DNA from: an uncultured Ruminococcus sp.
Lineage (GTDB): Bacteria; Bacillota; Clostridia; Oscillospirales; Ruminococcaceae
Direction of reading: 5' to 3'
DNA: 64,000 bases
Assembly (NCBI GenBank): GCA_937926145.1
Contig: CALANW010000118.1
Span: 18,338-82,337 of the forward strand
The notes beneath the pieces are model-generated. The model worked only from the letters and a program-made list of their open reading frames with translations. It was not told where the DNA came from and searched no databases. Below, in pieces: positions 5,105 through 54,590 of this stretch. The translations under genes were made by a program, and so were the position numbers. Positions within the stretch are counted from its first letter, which is position 1. Every line of letters begins with the position of its first letter.

Positions 5105-5647
5105 TTACTTGATGAATGGAGCGCCCATAAGCTCAAGAAGAGCCTTAGCTTCTTCATCTGTGTTTGCAGTAGTGATGATGTTGATATCCATACCGCGAAC
5201 CTTGTCGATCTTATCGTATTCGATTTCAGGGAAAATGAGCTGTTCCTTGATACCGGTAGAGTAGTTGCCTCTGCCGTCGAAGGAGTTAGCGCTGATGCCT
5301 CTGAAGTCACGAACACGTGGGAATGCTACATTGAAAAGTCTGTCGAGGAATTCGTACATCTTTTCGCTTCTGAGAGTAACCTTAACACCGATAGGCATGC
5401 CTTCACGGATCTTAAAGTTAGCTACCGACTTCTTAGCGCGGCATACAACAGGCTTCTGACCTGTGATAGCAGCGAGATCAGTCATGATAGCATCGATAAC
5501 CTTAGCGTTATCCTTTGCTTCACCTGCACCGACGTTGATAACAACCTTGTCGATCTTAGGGATCTGCATAACACTCTTGTACTCGAACTTTTTCATTAAA
5601 GCAGGAGCAACTGTGCTGACATAAAGTTCTTTTAAATTAGATGCCAT
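5105..5647 (-). CDS. rplE: 50S ribosomal protein L5 (uL5)
   Basis: I place the start at the internal ATG (MASNLKELY...), which is preceded by GGAAAGGAG. The longer track ORF would overlap rplX. Confidence 0.92.
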
Positions 5648-12096: not shown

Positions 12097-12279
12097 AACG
12101 TCAGCTTTTATACACACAAAACTTACCTATCGGCATAAAAATGCCAACGGTTTAAGCACACACAGTGTTGATATTACAGCCGCCCGGTTTAAAATCGGAC
12201 ATACTCCATGAAAATTCCCCGGCAAACCGCCGGCCACCTTTCACTTCAACGCATATCTTGTTGCAGTCACGCAAGTAGT

Positions 12280-19860: not shown

Positions 19861-21274
19861 AAGTATCTTGAACCTCAAAACGGCGATATGGATGTACTTG
19901 GTCATCTTTATAACGGGTATTTTTGTACTGCTGTGGTTCACGTTCGGCGTGTCGCTCGAAGCGAACTACAAGAGCAAAAAGACCAAGGACATCGTTTCTA
20001 TCGCTTCGTATATTCTCAAGGGCTGGAACGAGGACGGACTGACTACCGAAAATCTCGACAATACGGCATACAATAATAATATGTGCATCCTTATTCAGGA
20101 CGCCGACGGCTACACGGTATATTCCTACGATATGATGGCGAACAACTGCCTTATCCACGGCGTTTACAGCCTGAACCTTTTCAAATACCGAAATCAGGCT
20201 CTTGCGAGCAGCAACGGCTATTATTACGCCGAGGTCAACAACCCGCGCTTCAACACGAACACACTGCTTTTCGTTATGGTCATAGGCTCGGTCGATGACC
20301 CCGAGGGCTATATTTACCTCAACACCTCTCTCGCACCGCTCAAATCGACCGCTGATATTATCAAGCGGCAGATATATTGGATAGGTATTATCCTGCTTCT
20401 GCTCGGACTTATCATTGCGTATTTCCTCGCGTCCGTTATCGAAGCGCCTATCGTCCGCATTACAAAAACCGCGAAGAAAATGGGCGAGGGAAACTACAAC
20501 GTTGTCTTTGACGGACACGGATATGAGGAAACGGAAATTCTCGCCGATACTCTGAACAGTGCGGAGGAAGAAATCTCAAAGGTCGATACTCTCCGCCGTG
20601 ACCTTATCGCGAACGTTTCGCACGATCTGAGAACGCCGCTCACAATGGTCAAAGCCTACGCCGAGATGATACGCGATATTTCGGGCGATAATCCGCAGAA
20701 GCGCGCTGAACATCTGAACGTTATCATCGAAGAGAGTGACCGACTTGCAAAGCTCGTCAATGATATCCTTGACCTTTCCAAACTTGAAAGCGGCAACTTT
20801 GAGATAACCGAAACGGAATTCTGCATCACCGACACGATACGAAGCATAATGGAGCGCTATACCCTGCTTTCCGAGCAGAAAGGCTACACCTTTATCGTTT
20901 CTGCCGAGCAGAATTTCATCGTCAAAGCCGATGCTGTTAAAATTCAGCAGGTAATTTACAACCTTATCAACAACGCCGTCAACTACACGGGCGAGGACAA
21001 GACCGTTTATATCACGCAGATAGTCAAGAAGAAAAAACTCGTCCGAATCGAGATAACCGACACGGGCGCAGGCATCGACCCCGAGCTGATACCGCTCATC
21101 TTCGACCGCTACTACCGCACGGAAAAGAGCAAGCGTGAGGTCATCGGCACGGGACTTGGACTTTCCATAGTAAAGCAGATACTCCAGCGCCACAACTATG
21201 AATTCGGCGTTCGTTCCGAAAAAGGTGTCGGAAGCACATTCTGGTTCGAGATGCCGGGACATCTTGAAGAATAA
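19847..21274 (+). CDS. sensor histidine kinase (HAMP-HisKA-HATPase)
   Basis: 475 aa with H-box SHDLRTPL, N-box NLINNAVNYT and G-boxes DTGAGI and GTGLGLSIV. The TTG start overlaps the regulator stop, so the start is uncertain. Confidence 0.9.
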   Translation: MKQHKSILNLKTAIWMYLVIFITGIFVLLWFTFGVSLEANYKSKKTKDIVSIASYILKGWNEDGLTTENLDNTAYNNNMCILIQDADGYTVYSYDMMANNCLIHGVYSLNLFKYRNQALASSNGYYYAEVNNPRFNTNTLLFVMVIGSVDDPEGYIYLNTSLAPLKSTADIIKRQIYWIGIILLLLGLIIAYFLASVIEAPIVRITKTAKKMGEGNYNVVFDGHGYEETEILADTLNSAEEEISKVDTLRRDLIANVSHDLRTPLTMVKAYAEMIRDISGDNPQKRAEHLNVIIEESDRLAKLVNDILDLSKLESGNFEITETEFCITDTIRSIMERYTLLSEQKGYTFIVSAEQNFIVKADAVKIQQVIYNLINNAVNYTGEDKTVYITQIVKKKKLVRIEITDTGAGIDPELIPLIFDRYYRTEKSKREVIGTGLGLSIVKQILQRHNYEFGVRSEKGVGSTFWFEMPGHLEE

Positions 21275-21384
21275 TGCGTAATTCGTAATGCTTAATGCGT
21301 AATTATTTTGTTCCGCAGGTTTACGGTGAGAACCCTATCTTCATAGGGACGGGTTTATATTCGACTGTTTTCCAACAAAAACTC

Positions 21385-21413
21385 TTGACATATCAGTTTA
21401 AAAGTCTTATAAT
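21385..21413 (+). promoter_or_regulatory. consensus promoter of candidate antitoxin sRNA, copy 1
   Basis: TTGACA (21385-21390), 17-nt spacer, TATAAT (21408-21413). Confidence 0.7.
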
Positions 21414-21419
21414 ATAAAT

Positions 21420-21512
21420 ACAAAGAGGGCACACCGATAGACGGTCACTCCCAATATTTAGGTTAAGAAATAACCGTCCAAGTTTGGTCGCTCTGGGCGG
21501 TTATTTCTTTTT
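21420..21512 (+). ncRNA. candidate antisense (antitoxin) sRNA, copy 1 (ends approximate)
   Basis: No ORF. It ends in the hairpin GAAAUAACCGUCC...GGGCGGUUAUUUC (21467-21507) plus U5. The 3' end overlaps the last four codons and the 3' UTR of the convergent peptide gene. Confidence 0.55.
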
Positions 21513-21590
21513 ATTGTTGCAGCAATTCAACACTATCTGTATGATATTGCATATAAGTATTCCTAAAGATACAACTTCTGTGATACTCAT
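21501..21590 (-). CDS. 29-aa hydrophobic peptide, candidate type I toxin, copy 1
   Basis: Own translation: MSITEVVSLGILICNIIQIVLNCCNNKKK. The GGGGG SD lies 9 nt upstream. The peptide has one TM-like segment and a Lys tail. Confidence 0.6.
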   Translation of the reverse strand: MSITEVVSLGILICNIIQIVLNCCNNKKK

Positions 21591-21657
21591 ATCGCAACGC
21601 CCCCTTTCAGGGAGCAAAGATTGACCGCCTACCGTTTCTGGTATGCCCATAGATTCT

Positions 21658-21686
21658 ATTTTATCTTTTATGTTGAAATTTGTCAA
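21658..21686 (-). promoter_or_regulatory. promoter of peptide gene, copy 1
   Basis: Minus strand reads TTGACA (21686-21681), 17-nt spacer, TAAAAT (21663-21658). Confidence 0.6.
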
Positions 21687-21775
21687 TTATTTGAAATAAA
21701 TACACTTTTTTGTTGTTTTAAGCATCGACAGTTTACAATTGATAATTTTGTCGGAAACAAAATCAAAAACAGCTC

Positions 21776-21804
21776 TTGACATATCATTTTAAAAGCATTA
21801 TAAT
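21776..21804 (+). promoter_or_regulatory. consensus promoter of candidate antitoxin sRNA, copy 2
   Basis: TTGACA (21776-21781), 17-nt spacer, TATAAT (21799-21804). Confidence 0.7.
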
Positions 21805-21810
21805 ATAAAT

Positions 21811-21902
21811 ACAAAGAGGGCATACTGATAGACGGTCGCTCCCAAAATTAGCGAAAAAAAGTAATCGCTCCGGTTTGGTCGCTCGGGCGGTTACTTCTTT
21901 TT
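21811..21902 (+). ncRNA. candidate antisense (antitoxin) sRNA, copy 2 (ends approximate)
   Basis: Same architecture as copy 1, with a terminator hairpin at 21858-21897 plus U5. Confidence 0.55.
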
Positions 21903-21980
21903 ATTGTTGCAGCAATTCAATACTATCTGTATGATATTGCATATAAGTATTCCTAAAGATACAACTTCTGTGATACTCAT
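21891..21980 (-). CDS. 29-aa hydrophobic peptide, candidate type I toxin, copy 2
   Basis: Own translation gives a peptide identical to copy 1. Only 2 of 90 nt differ and both changes are synonymous. Not in the ORF track because it is under 60 aa. Confidence 0.6.
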   Translation of the reverse strand: MSITEVVSLGILICNIIQIVLNCCNNKKK

Positions 21981-22046
21981 ATCGCAACGCCCCCTTTCAG
22001 GGAGCAAAGATTGACCGCCTACCGTTCAGGTATGCCCATAAACCTT

Positions 22047-22075
22047 ATTTTATCATTTAAATAGTATTTTGTCAA
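22047..22075 (-). promoter_or_regulatory. promoter of peptide gene, copy 2
   Basis: Minus strand reads TTGACA (22075-22070), 17-nt spacer, TAAAAT (22052-22047). Confidence 0.6.
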
Positions 22076-22139
22076 TTATTTGAAATAAATACACTTTCTT
22101 GTTGTTCTTATAGTAAAAATAAAATCTGCACATTAAATC

Positions 22140-22183
22140 AACAGACCTGTTTTCGAGGATTTTTCCTTGAAAACAGGTCTGTT
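22140..22183. terminator. long perfect hairpin (15-bp stem), member of a repeated terminator family
   Basis: AACAGACCTGTTTTC-loop-GAAAACAGGTCTGTT. Near-identical stems occur at 42234-42277 and 48030-48072. Confidence 0.65.
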
Positions 22184-22379
22184 CGTTTATTTCATAACAC
22201 ATTGCGGCGCAGGATGGGCAACCGTCCATTGTAGTTTCGTGGGTCGCTAACGGGCGGATATGGAATCCGCCCCTACGGAATTCAGCCTTTCGTAAAATAT
22301 GCGGAGCAAGAATAATTGCGCATTACGAATTACGCATTGAATTAATTCCGCATTCCGAATTCCGAATTTAAACCAAGTA

Positions 22380-42102: not shown

Positions 42103-42585
42103 TTCGGAATTAGGAATTCGGAATGCGGAATTAGTTTGCTTCGCAAATAATTTTAAATCGTTGGGGCGGATTCTATATCCGCCCTTTTCGTGTTTAATTG
42201 CTAATTGGATTTTCGATATGCGAATAAACAAAGACAGACCTGTTTTCAAAGAATTATCCCTTTGAAAACAGGTCTGTTCGTTTATTTTATACTAAACACC
42301 AATTAAAAACTATACAAAAAATCAAGCAAAAGCTCGTAGCTGTTATAACAGCTTGATGTTGAAAACAGGTTTATATGGCTTTTGCGCCGATTTTTTGTCT
42401 ACACTTTGATTAAAAATTAGTATTATAACGCCTTGCGGCGCGGGACGGGAAACCCGTCCCCTACAGTAGTTCCGCTGTAATTCGTAGATTGCATCGGGCG
42501 GATATGGAATCCGCCCCTACGAAAATCCGTTTTTTCGCCGTAAATTTTCGGAGCAAAATAATTCCGAATTCCGCATTCCGAATTA
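42100..42585. repeat. mosaic intergenic repeat locus B (type example)
   Basis: Left array T(AATKMGG)x4AATTAG at 42100-42134. Right array (ATTCCGM)x3 at 42558-42585. Palindromes at 42163-42184 (+), 42442-42464 (-) and 42496-42520 (-). Central terminator hairpin at 42234-42277. Confidence 0.85.
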
Positions 42586-50816: not shown

Positions 50817-50919
50817 TAATGCTTAATGCGTAATTCGTAATGCGTAATTATTTTATTTCGGGAAATTGTTGTTTCGCCGTAAATTTGCGGAGCAAAATAA
50901 TTACGCATTGCGAATTGCA
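50817..50919. repeat. minimal mosaic repeat element (locus E, 103 bp)
   Basis: The (AATKCKT)x4 array at 50817-50850 and the inverted ATTRCGM array at 50899-50919 are separated only by the ATTTCGGG...CGCCGTAAATTTGCGGAGCAAAAT core. Confidence 0.8.
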
Positions 50920-54322: not shown

Positions 54323-54590
54323 TTCGGAATTAGGAATTCGGAATGCGGAATTATTGGTGATTTGTACATTTGTCACGAAACGCCAAAATTTCGTACCATA
54401 AGGCATTAATATAATAACAAACAACCCTGTTTTCAATGGTTTTATCCAAAGAAAATAGGGTTGTTTTTGTTATTATTCAAGATATTGGGTACACATAAAA
54501 TTGCTGACGCAATTCGGGACGGAAATCGGTTCTCGCCATAAATTTGCGGAGCAAAGTAATTCCGAATTCCGCATTCCGAATTCCGAATTA
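54320..54590. repeat. mosaic intergenic repeat locus F
   Basis: Left array at 54320-54353 starts with the ilvC stop TAA. Right array (ATTCCGM)x4 at 54558-54590 ends with the sod stop. Terminator hairpin at 54421-54464. Degenerate palindrome at 54516-54535. Confidence 0.85.

Follow-up and report, generated by a model that had tools for sequence, protein, structure and literature searches.

Organization of the locus

The stretch of DNA analysed here, which we refer to as the window, comprises 64,000 nucleotides of contig CALANW010000118.1 from an uncultured Ruminococcus sp. (assembly GCA_937926145.1). At 21373-22106 it contains two head-to-tail units of ~390 bp, each carrying a short peptide gene on the minus strand and, converging on it from the plus strand, a gene for a candidate small RNA (sRNA). 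The repeated segment runs from 21373 to 21717 in the first unit and from 21764 to 22106 in the second, with a spacing of 389-391 bp. An earlier note on this DNA, made from the sequence alone, had described the units as a tandem pair of candidate type I toxin-antitoxin modules of like architecture, and the tandem pair is borne out by our analysis.

The peptide gene of copy 1 is preceded by a promoter that matches the consensus at 11 of 12 positions (TTGACA-17-TAAAAT, 21658..21686, minus strand) and by a 5′ untranslated region (UTR) of about 61 nt (21591..21651), with a Shine-Dalgarno (SD) sequence, GGGGG, 9 nt upstream of the AUG. The open reading frame (ORF) at 21501..21590 has 29 codons and a stop, and encodes MSITEVVSLGILICNIIQIVLNCCNNKKK. 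Its 5′ UTR includes the block GGUAGGCGGUC, a hairpin that contains the SD (GCUCCC-UGAAA-GGGGGC, 21599-21615) and a segment, T5 (about 21610-21648), that closely repeats the 5′ domain of the sRNA in the same sense. Copy 2 encodes the same peptide (21891..21980, minus strand) behind a 5′ UTR at 21981..22040, in which the SD hairpin occupies 21989-22005, and an 11/12 promoter (TTGACA-17-TAAAAT, 22047..22075) with a TG ahead of its −10 box.

On the plus strand, perfect 12/12 promoters (TTGACA-17-TATAAT) at 21385..21413 and 21776..21804 precede the two candidate antitoxin RNA genes, of about 95 nt (sRNA-1, 21420..21514) and about 94 nt (sRNA-2, 21811..21904); the ~93-95 nt that follow each promoter contain no ORF. 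The sRNA has a purine-rich 5′ end, AAAGAGGG; sRNA-1 comprises a first hairpin (hairpin 1, 21427-21452) with the conserved loop AUAGA at 21437-21441, and a terminator hairpin at 21465-21509 (arms 21465-21480 and 21494-21509) followed by a U-run. This terminator covers N26, the KKK codons and the stop codon of the peptide gene, of which the KKK and stop codons fall in its 3′ arm and T-run. Near-consensus promoters of this 29-nt pattern (at most one mismatch) number 12 in the 64-kb window where 0.41 are expected, and four of them fall within the 715-bp stretch of the locus; of the four perfect sites in the window, two are the sRNA promoters. Such an excess over expectation indicates that the promoters did not arise by chance. 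All four promoters, the leader of ~60 nt with its buried SD, the 29-codon ORF in both copies and the layout of a non-coding transcript of ~90 nt whose terminator overlaps the end of the peptide gene were found as the earlier note had proposed.

The two copies have diverged unevenly. The peptide gene and its leader are 99% identical (21495-21636 versus 21885-22026), and the two ORFs differ at two nucleotides, both synonymous; the sRNA-side segment is 78% identical (D2, 21373-21511 versus 21764-21902). Divergence clusters on the sRNA-specific side: close to the promoter, in the linker and in the terminator 5′ arm. Diversification of antitoxin specificity could explain this pattern, as could a recent conversion event in the toxin part.

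A family of homologous units

A version of the ORF extended to 61 aa by a TTG start was used as the query against a database of 5.8 billion proteins, and two clusters only were retrieved, encoding MSITEVLSLGILICNIIQIMLNCSNKKK and MSIIEVLTLGILICDIIKILLDSKKK. The units that carry them sit in differing genomic contexts and are distinguished from those of the window by conservative replacements, synonymous changes and in-frame deletions of one and three codons (L005, L002). Divergent units are also present on predicted viral contigs, at 2985-3305 of L001 (MT835489, labelled 'Bacteriophage sp.' in GenBank), at 3560-3890 of L006 and at 3935-4270 of L007 (both from IMG/VR). A search of a phage collection returned one weak match, which proved to be a divergent unit, and a search of a plasmid collection returned none.

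An 18-nt terminator arm, GGGCGGTTAYTTCTTTTT, is common to the window and all of these initial relatives and served as the anchor for a scan of 185,579 species genomes, in which at least 120 loci were matched. The matches listed belong overwhelmingly to Oscillospiraceae, Ruminococcaceae, Acutalibacteraceae, Oscillibacter, Faecalibacterium and other Clostridia, and include a few from Negativicutes and Bacilli as well as a few apparent chance matches in unrelated phyla. A candidate ORF accompanies the anchor in 115 units. In at least 93 of them, distributed over 84 loci, the ORF is hydrophobic, spans 22-41 aa, follows a strong SD and ends in KKK-stop. Among these 93, the start codon is ATG in 86, a promoter of 11-12/12 lies on the opposite strand in 80, and this antisense promoter is a perfect consensus in 55. 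The sRNA length defined by the promoter has a median of 92 nt (interquartile range 90-97, 80 units).

Tandem arrays, detected with a covariance model of the sRNA (R1, see below), are common: four copies form one array in Ruminococcus callidus ATCC 27760 (L028; NZ_CP186925.1, near 552-554 kb), three copies occur in each of L099, L111 and L118, and two in several further loci. Fozo et al. 2010 (PMC2887945) regard tandem duplication as characteristic of type I loci. Cultured carriers are R. callidus ATCC 27760, Sporobacter termitidis DSM 10068 and Pseudoflavonifractor sp. 524-17. The intergenic region that holds the two units recurs in other metagenome assemblies, L128 and L129 (4565-5669), with one single-nucleotide polymorphism at window position 21763, and neither peptide is called as a gene there; the contigs of L130 and L131 break inside the tandem repeat.

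Two variants of the unit were observed in the course of this survey. A subfamily (L044, L071, L080, L113 and L124) is distinguished by longer sRNAs (120-143 nt) that contain an additional hairpin and by peptides of the form MTIFEVIS...GNKKK, and retains the same terminator and KKK anchor. In the relatives whose peptide is MSIIEVLTLGILICDIIKILLDSKKK (L002 at 5147-5293, L003 and L004), the sRNA gene has given way, starting at the terminator loop and continuing outwards, to the end of a transposase-like ORF, where all of the contigs break off.

Coding sequence and structured RNA

By its pattern of change, the 29-codon ORF evolves as coding sequence. The peptide frame stays open upstream of the stop for a median of 46 codons, compared with 5 and 9 in the other two frames. 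Across 32 equal-length pairs of coding sequences with 70-99% identity, substitutions at codon positions 1, 2 and 3 number 151, 53 and 251, and 170 of the 336 differing codons are synonymous. The earlier note had envisaged that homologous loci might preserve the nucleotides and not the ORF; what they show is coding evolution of the ORF.

The sRNA is predicted to fold into two hairpins in both window copies. In minimum free energy (MFE) folds of 67 aligned sRNAs, hairpin 1 carries a 5-nt loop, (A/G)UAGA, closed by ACCG/CGGU, and is followed by a variable linker and a terminator hairpin with a UUUGG loop. The covariance model R1 was built on this two-hairpin structure, given by hand. It matches copy 1 with 76.2 bits (E = 2.4e-17) and copy 2 with 69.2 bits (E = 1.5e-15), and reveals no further copy in the window (next-best E = 0.077). 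Across the collected loci, 100 sources contain a total of 115 R1 matches with E ≤ 1e-5, of which about 10 are low-scoring reverse-strand matches to the palindromic terminator.

In the alignment of the 115 matches, 85.7% of cells pair, and compensatory double changes occur in 13 of 24 pairs; hairpin 1 shows them in every one of its 10 pairs. Covariation scores 0.223, compared with 0.143 for column shuffles (0 of 500 reach 0.223) and at most 0.105 for slid partners; being fitted to the model, the alignment leans towards the structure, with which the slide control is in agreement, as are the raw MFE folds. RNAalifold, applied to a MAFFT alignment of the 67 sRNAs, recovers no more than the terminator core, the arms of hairpin 1 being misaligned there. 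At the terminator pair 101-145, 59 sequences have AU and 40 have GC, an alternation that on the opposite strand corresponds to the synonymous AAA/AAG choice of a Lys codon. Comparative analysis thus identifies the sRNA as a conserved structured RNA with covariation, and in silico its gene is an antisense RNA gene opposite the putative toxin gene, overlapping its last codons and 3′ UTR.

The SD of the peptide mRNA is predicted to lie within a hairpin of 6-7 bp (GCUCCCU/AGGGGGC) and its AUG within a second helix formed with codons 11-14. The pairing probability of the SD, as a family mean, is 0.77, compared with 0.59 when the upstream leader is shuffled, and the native value exceeds the shuffled one in 70 of 79 loci. 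In these predicted folds, SD occlusion is a feature of the family.

Relationship to known type I toxins

Profile searches connect many members of the family to described peptides. Among 80 distinct family peptides, 33 match Pfam PF16935 (Hol_Tox, the TxpA family; best E = 1.3e-10), 11 match the NCBIfam type I toxin model PepG1, 14 match NCBIfam ComI and 10 match PHROG 3488, 'holin'. Annotated members of the TxpA family have been called 'holin-like toxins', and TxpA-like sequences have been found in Clostridiales (Fozo et al. 2010, PMC2887945). The window units and the loci that match Hol_Tox, L063 for example, have in common the sRNA detected by R1, the loop motif of hairpin 1 and the leader motif CGGUAGGCGGU, all of which lie outside the search anchor. 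Because of these three RNA features, we place the locus, as a divergent branch, in a TxpA/BsrG-related family; the peptide itself is not claimed to pass a sequence test for that family, and as judged from these comparisons the link is stronger at the level of the locus than between peptide profiles. The earlier note had not recognised the peptide as a member of the Fst, TxpA or BsrG families, which holds for model matches of the window peptide and not for its locus family; many peptides of that family match Hol_Tox, PepG1 and ComI, and the window peptide is no orphan. Since the locus family is homologous to the TxpA/BsrG/PepG1 group, the peptide is probably a membrane-damaging toxin.

A proposed toxin-antitoxin-like module of type I

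We consider it likely that the ~390-bp units both represent type I toxin-antitoxin-like modules and that these fall into the Gram-positive '3′-overlap' class. The candidate reading of the earlier note has the best support of those considered, from the recurrence of the architecture in at least 93 units, the coding character of the ORF, the covariation of the sRNA and the frequency of tandem duplication. According to this proposal, the minus-strand promoter would give rise to an mRNA of ~190 nt whose product is a membrane peptide of 29 aa with one helix and a Lys tail, and the perfect plus-strand promoter to a two-hairpin non-coding RNA of ~93 nt. The sRNA would pair with the 3′ end of the peptide mRNA, starting at the fully complementary terminator loops with their conserved UUUGG, and the duplex would lead to RNase III-type cleavage and decay, to reinforced occlusion of the SD, or to both, as in bsrG/SR4 and txpA/RatA. 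The peptide would be made only once the level of sRNA drops. These steps, from loop-loop contact to decay or SD occlusion, are drawn by analogy with the Bacillus subtilis systems. This is the layout given for Gram-positive families in T1TAdb, in which the antisense RNA is positioned towards the 3′ side and covers the last part of the ORF (PMC8594479). The B. subtilis antitoxins RatA, SR4, SR5 and SR6 elicit RNase III cleavage by base-pairing at the 3′ ends of the toxin mRNAs they control, and binding of SR4 starts at the terminator loop and also lengthens the helix that sequesters the SD (PMC6562991).

Several results weigh against this proposal. The window peptide, in its 29-aa and 61-aa versions, matches no Pfam or NCBIfam model at E ≤ 10 and no PHROG model, and its two closest homologues match none of the Pfam/NCBIfam models above the cut-off (P0001 has no match, and P0002 matches Cortexin below it, E = 0.17). 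Profile-profile comparison by hhalign of the window subfamily (A4) with VTY-type peptides (A5, 13 of 24 of which match Hol_Tox) gave a probability of 59% with E = 9e-5 over 22 columns, KKK having been trimmed, a level that points to a remote relationship without securing it. Rfam searches at the gathering threshold for the window and at E ≤ 10 for the region returned no antitoxin family and, at the locus, chance-level matches only, the best weak match in the region being ohsC (24.9 bits against a cut-off of 50, E = 0.34). The anchor by which the family was collected fixes the terminator 3′ arm and the KKK-stop, so these two features are not independent evidence, as the others are. In the loci in which the sRNA gene has been replaced (L002-L004), the peptide gene and its promoter are intact, which argues that the peptide lacks lethality in those loci or is kept silent by the structure of its own mRNA. 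The literature searched contains no expression, toxicity or neutralisation data for family members, and a 2019 review states that, the C. difficile systems apart, very few clostridial species have yielded homologues of known type I toxins in searches made in silico (PMC6563280).

Transcription termination of the peptide mRNA belongs with these points. The earlier note had proposed a bidirectional terminator shared by the two RNAs, and this holds for the plus strand, on which a terminator scan flags the shared hairpin; none is called on the minus strand for the peptide mRNA. Read on that strand, the full stem has no T-run after it. An inner G+C stem followed by UUAUUUCUU has the A-tract/stem/U-tract shape of bidirectional terminators, and termination of the peptide mRNA at the shared hairpin is plausible on this basis.

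Comparison with characterized systems

The closest parallels are bsrG/SR4 and txpA/RatA of B. subtilis, and that part of the comparison in the earlier note stands. Like them, the window units encode a short single-helix peptide with a Lys-rich C-terminus, have a convergent antisense RNA whose overlap with the toxin mRNA lies at the 3′ end and takes in the last part of the ORF, and are predicted to place the SD in an mRNA helix (PMC6562991, PMC8594479); relatives of the window units reside on predicted phage contigs, as the Bacillus loci reside on prophages. The window differs from them in that its peptide scores with none of Hol_Tox, PepG1 and ComI, its sRNA belongs to no Rfam family, and its overlap may comprise only the terminator hairpin of ~45 nt. 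Its sRNA is also much shorter, about 93 nt, SR4 and RatA being roughly 180-220 nt long. The likeness that the earlier note had drawn to par (fst/RNAII of Enterococcus faecalis pAD1), whose complementary 5′ repeats, DRa and DRb, cover the toxin translation start, fails in one defining respect: the 5′ repeats of the window units are inverted on the DNA, so that the two RNAs have the same sequence there and not complementary ones. The window peptide matches no Fst model. The window and par are alike in having convergent RNAs with one hairpin, which in par is used in both directions, first contact being made through complementary loops (PMC6562991); in par, however, the overlap excludes the ORF, and the decisive pairing takes place at 5′ repeats in opposite directions (PMC8594479).

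Other systems are similar in part. The sprG1/SprF1 pair of Staphylococcus aureus also has a 3′-overlapping antisense antitoxin with a purine-rich 5′ end, which in SprF1 binds ribosomes (PMC8158120), and its toxin model, PepG1, is the one matched by the 11 family peptides; the window differs in that its own peptide matches no model and gives no sign of two nested peptides. In the modules of Clostridioides difficile (CD2517.1/RCd8 and prophage modules), the likeness is by description: they are found in Clostridia, often in prophages, and combine small hydrophobic peptides that have a Lys-rich C-terminus with antisense RNA antitoxins (PMC6563280, PMC7699646).

A same-sense repeat at the 5′ ends

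Over its first ~35 nt (S5) the sRNA repeats, in the same sense, the sequence with which the toxin leader starts (T5, ~45 nt). The two form an inverted repeat on the DNA, T5 having two extra segments of ~6-7 nt. The same-sense score is 33.1 for cognate S5/T5 pairs, 19.2 for non-cognate pairs and 15.9 for the reverse complement, and the cognate pair is the best match in 33 of 56 loci; the similarity is thus locus-specific, and the two segments therefore co-evolve. We found no description of a similarity of this type for bsrG/SR4 or txpA/RatA.

Transitions between the segments have a direction. T5 has G where S5 has A in 68 cases and U where S5 has C in 31, and the opposite is seen in 16; outside the invariant block, wobble-compatible transitions outnumber incompatible ones by 46 to 15 (p = 9e-5). 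Masking two invariant G/A positions barely shifted the asymmetry, and because coverage of the full set of loci by this mask is unconfirmed, the position-resolved count is preferred. These directional differences of the G·U type render a duplex of T5 with antisense-S5 more stable than the mirror duplex; the difference averages 7.9 kcal/mol and has this direction in 51 of 52 loci. Antisense-S5 would be carried by a toxin-strand transcript that continues past the shared hairpin. For copy 1, the predicted fold changes from −60.9 kcal/mol for the short form to −91.9 for the read-through form (z = −7.2 versus shuffled extension, pairing probability 0.77), and for copy 2 from −58.8 to −84.5 (z = −4.1, pairing probability 0.73). 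In both copies a 5′-3′ panhandle of about 21 bp is predicted, for the read-through transcript only.

We offer, tentatively, an extra step in the proposed mechanism that would make use of this panhandle. Part of the peptide mRNA would read through the hairpin, the resulting 3′ extension, antisense to the sRNA 5′ domain, would pair with the 5′ UTR of the same molecule in a hok-like manner, and the sRNA would compete for that 3′ segment. The folds, together with the cognate co-variation and the G·U asymmetry, raise the possibility, which we would not put higher, of a hok-like fold-back whose 3′ partner is at the same time the full binding site of the antitoxin. In hok/sok and aapA1/IsoA1, to which the predicted 5′-3′ pairing would be similar if the window mRNA reads through, fold-back keeps the toxin mRNAs inert (PMC8594479, PMC6733600). 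Those systems are Gram-negative, with unrelated peptides and other gene layouts, and they differ too in that the 3′ partner of the fold-back in the window would double as the antitoxin binding site. It is rather doubtful that the antitoxin 5′ domain is maintained as a same-sense copy of the toxin 5′ UTR, that the two compete for one 3′ segment of the read-through mRNA, and that a lock built by inverted duplication is in this way opened or destroyed by a mimic RNA. Three alternatives for the S5/T5 similarity remain: a trans-acting anti-SD copy, the leader's own G/U-rich pairings, and gene conversion between the inverted repeats. The wobble bias could itself stem from a need of the 5′ UTR for alternative G/U-rich pairings, and the loci that display it are not independent because they are related and two of the biased positions are fixed across the family; both considerations detract from the fold-back.

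A separate observation concerns a leader block within T5, GGCGGU(U/C)A (21622-21630), which throughout the family has nearly the same 8-mer as the terminator 3′ arm, GGGCGGUUA (21496-21504). By virtue of this near-identity, the block is complementary to the stop region of the toxin mRNA, UAACCGCC, and to the 5′ arm of the sRNA terminator, and it could compete with terminator formation. Both the block and the 3′ arm are invariant, so covariation is uninformative on such competition.

Alternative interpretations

If the sRNA acted mainly in trans through its 5′ domain, the same-sense similarity would have another origin, namely that both RNAs must complement one SD. The 3′ arm of hairpin 1 (CUCCC/GCCCC), which copies the anti-SD of the mRNA itself, could then cover the toxin SD, or the purine-rich 5′ end would bind ribosomes as that of SprF1 does. 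Block C of the sRNA is identical or nearly so to the cis anti-SD in most loci, and the best predicted duplex falls on the SD region in several. There are precedents as well, since SprA1AS and RNAII act outside their overlaps (PMC8594479) and SprF1 binds ribosomes through its purine-rich 5′ end (PMC8158120). Against this, cognate pairing is predicted to be no better than non-cognate. Outside the overlap, the 5′ part of the sRNA and the toxin 5′ UTR and start region give −28.1 kcal/mol for cognate and −26.7 for non-cognate combinations, a result that also tells against specific 5′ contacts within the module we propose. On the same grounds, a par-like arrangement of complementary 5′ repeats, with specific trans pairing of the sRNA 5′ part, was tried and rejected. 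In the window such trans pairing amounts to only 5-6 bp, the directional G·U bias is not predicted by it, and the sequence conservation of the hairpin-1 loop is left unexplained. We regard a predominantly trans-acting sRNA as unlikely.

The units might alternatively consist of a small membrane peptide gene with a cis-acting antisense tuner and constitute no toxin-antitoxin pair, the peptide being a ComI-like inhibitor, a holin-like release factor or an anti-competitor peptide. The ComI and PHROG 'holin' matches, made by 14 and 10 of the 80 family peptides, speak for such a role, as does the persistence of the peptide gene without the sRNA gene in L002-L004. The hallmarks of type I systems are nevertheless present, in the form of predicted double occlusion of SD and AUG, a perfect antisense promoter in 55 of 93 units, tandem amplification and location on predicted phage contigs (PMC2887945, PMC8594479), and the relatives TxpA, BsrG and PepG1 are toxic on overexpression (PMC6562991, PMC8158120). 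A role of this kind outside toxin-antitoxin biology seems to us quite improbable. Finally, a non-coding intergenic repeat resembling a miniature inverted-repeat transposable element (MITE) or a repetitive extragenic palindromic (REP) element, with fortuitous ORF and promoters, would account for a duplicated unit in differing genomic contexts, for the internal inverted repeat that bounds it and for the short genome-wide repeats that flank the host intergenic region, but it is ruled out for practical purposes by the coding evidence (codon-position pattern, synonymous excess, in-frame indels, open frame, and conserved SD and ATG, the latter in 86 of 93 units), by 11-12/12 promoters far above chance and by RNA covariation.

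Implications for annotation and regulation

Comparative evidence supports the view that the locus is an unannotated, TxpA/BsrG-related type I-like module, and that it leads to a large and mostly unannotated family in gut Clostridia. The family encompasses at least 93 units in 84 loci, mostly from Oscillospiraceae, Ruminococcaceae and Acutalibacteraceae of human and animal guts, with many in tandem and some on phage contigs. Modules of this kind are systematically missed by gene callers, as seen from the lack of calls in identical loci and from the two clusters among 5.8 billion proteins. R1 is a covariance model for a candidate antitoxin RNA absent from Rfam, and together with the family it would improve the annotation of gut commensals, for which cultured test organisms are on hand. 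Should the 5′ UTR mimicry be functional, it would represent a new regulatory layout for type I systems: a hok-like 5′-3′ lock in a Gram-positive, TxpA-related system that is widespread, and often tandem, in gut Oscillospirales.

Other elements of the window

Several intergenic regions share a module made up of a 20-bp hairpin (AACAGACCTGTTTTC...GAAAACAGGTCTGTT) and a second one (GGGCGGATATGGAATCCGCCCC). It is present at 22134-22189 with 22254-22276 and at 42236-42290 with 42497-42520, and a similar hairpin is found at 54418-54470. The first hairpin at 22134-22189 probably terminates the upstream minus-strand gene and insulates copy 2. Repeats of the type AATGCG[T/G]AATT, often inside TAATTCGGAATTAGGAATTCGGAATGCGGAATTA, are inverted at both borders of many intergenic regions, and the window has 17 matches where 2.3 are expected. 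They lie at 21273-21304 (+) and 22314-22354 (−), 42122 (+) and 42567 (−), 45478 (+) and 45795 (−), 50825-50849 (+) and 50899 (−), and 54342 (+) and 54565 (−); the homologous unit in L005 is flanked by the same motif. The sole match in the window at an Rfam gathering score is an S10-Clostridia ribosomal protein leader at 12177-12257 on the minus strand (38.5 bits), which is consistent with a clostridial origin of this DNA.

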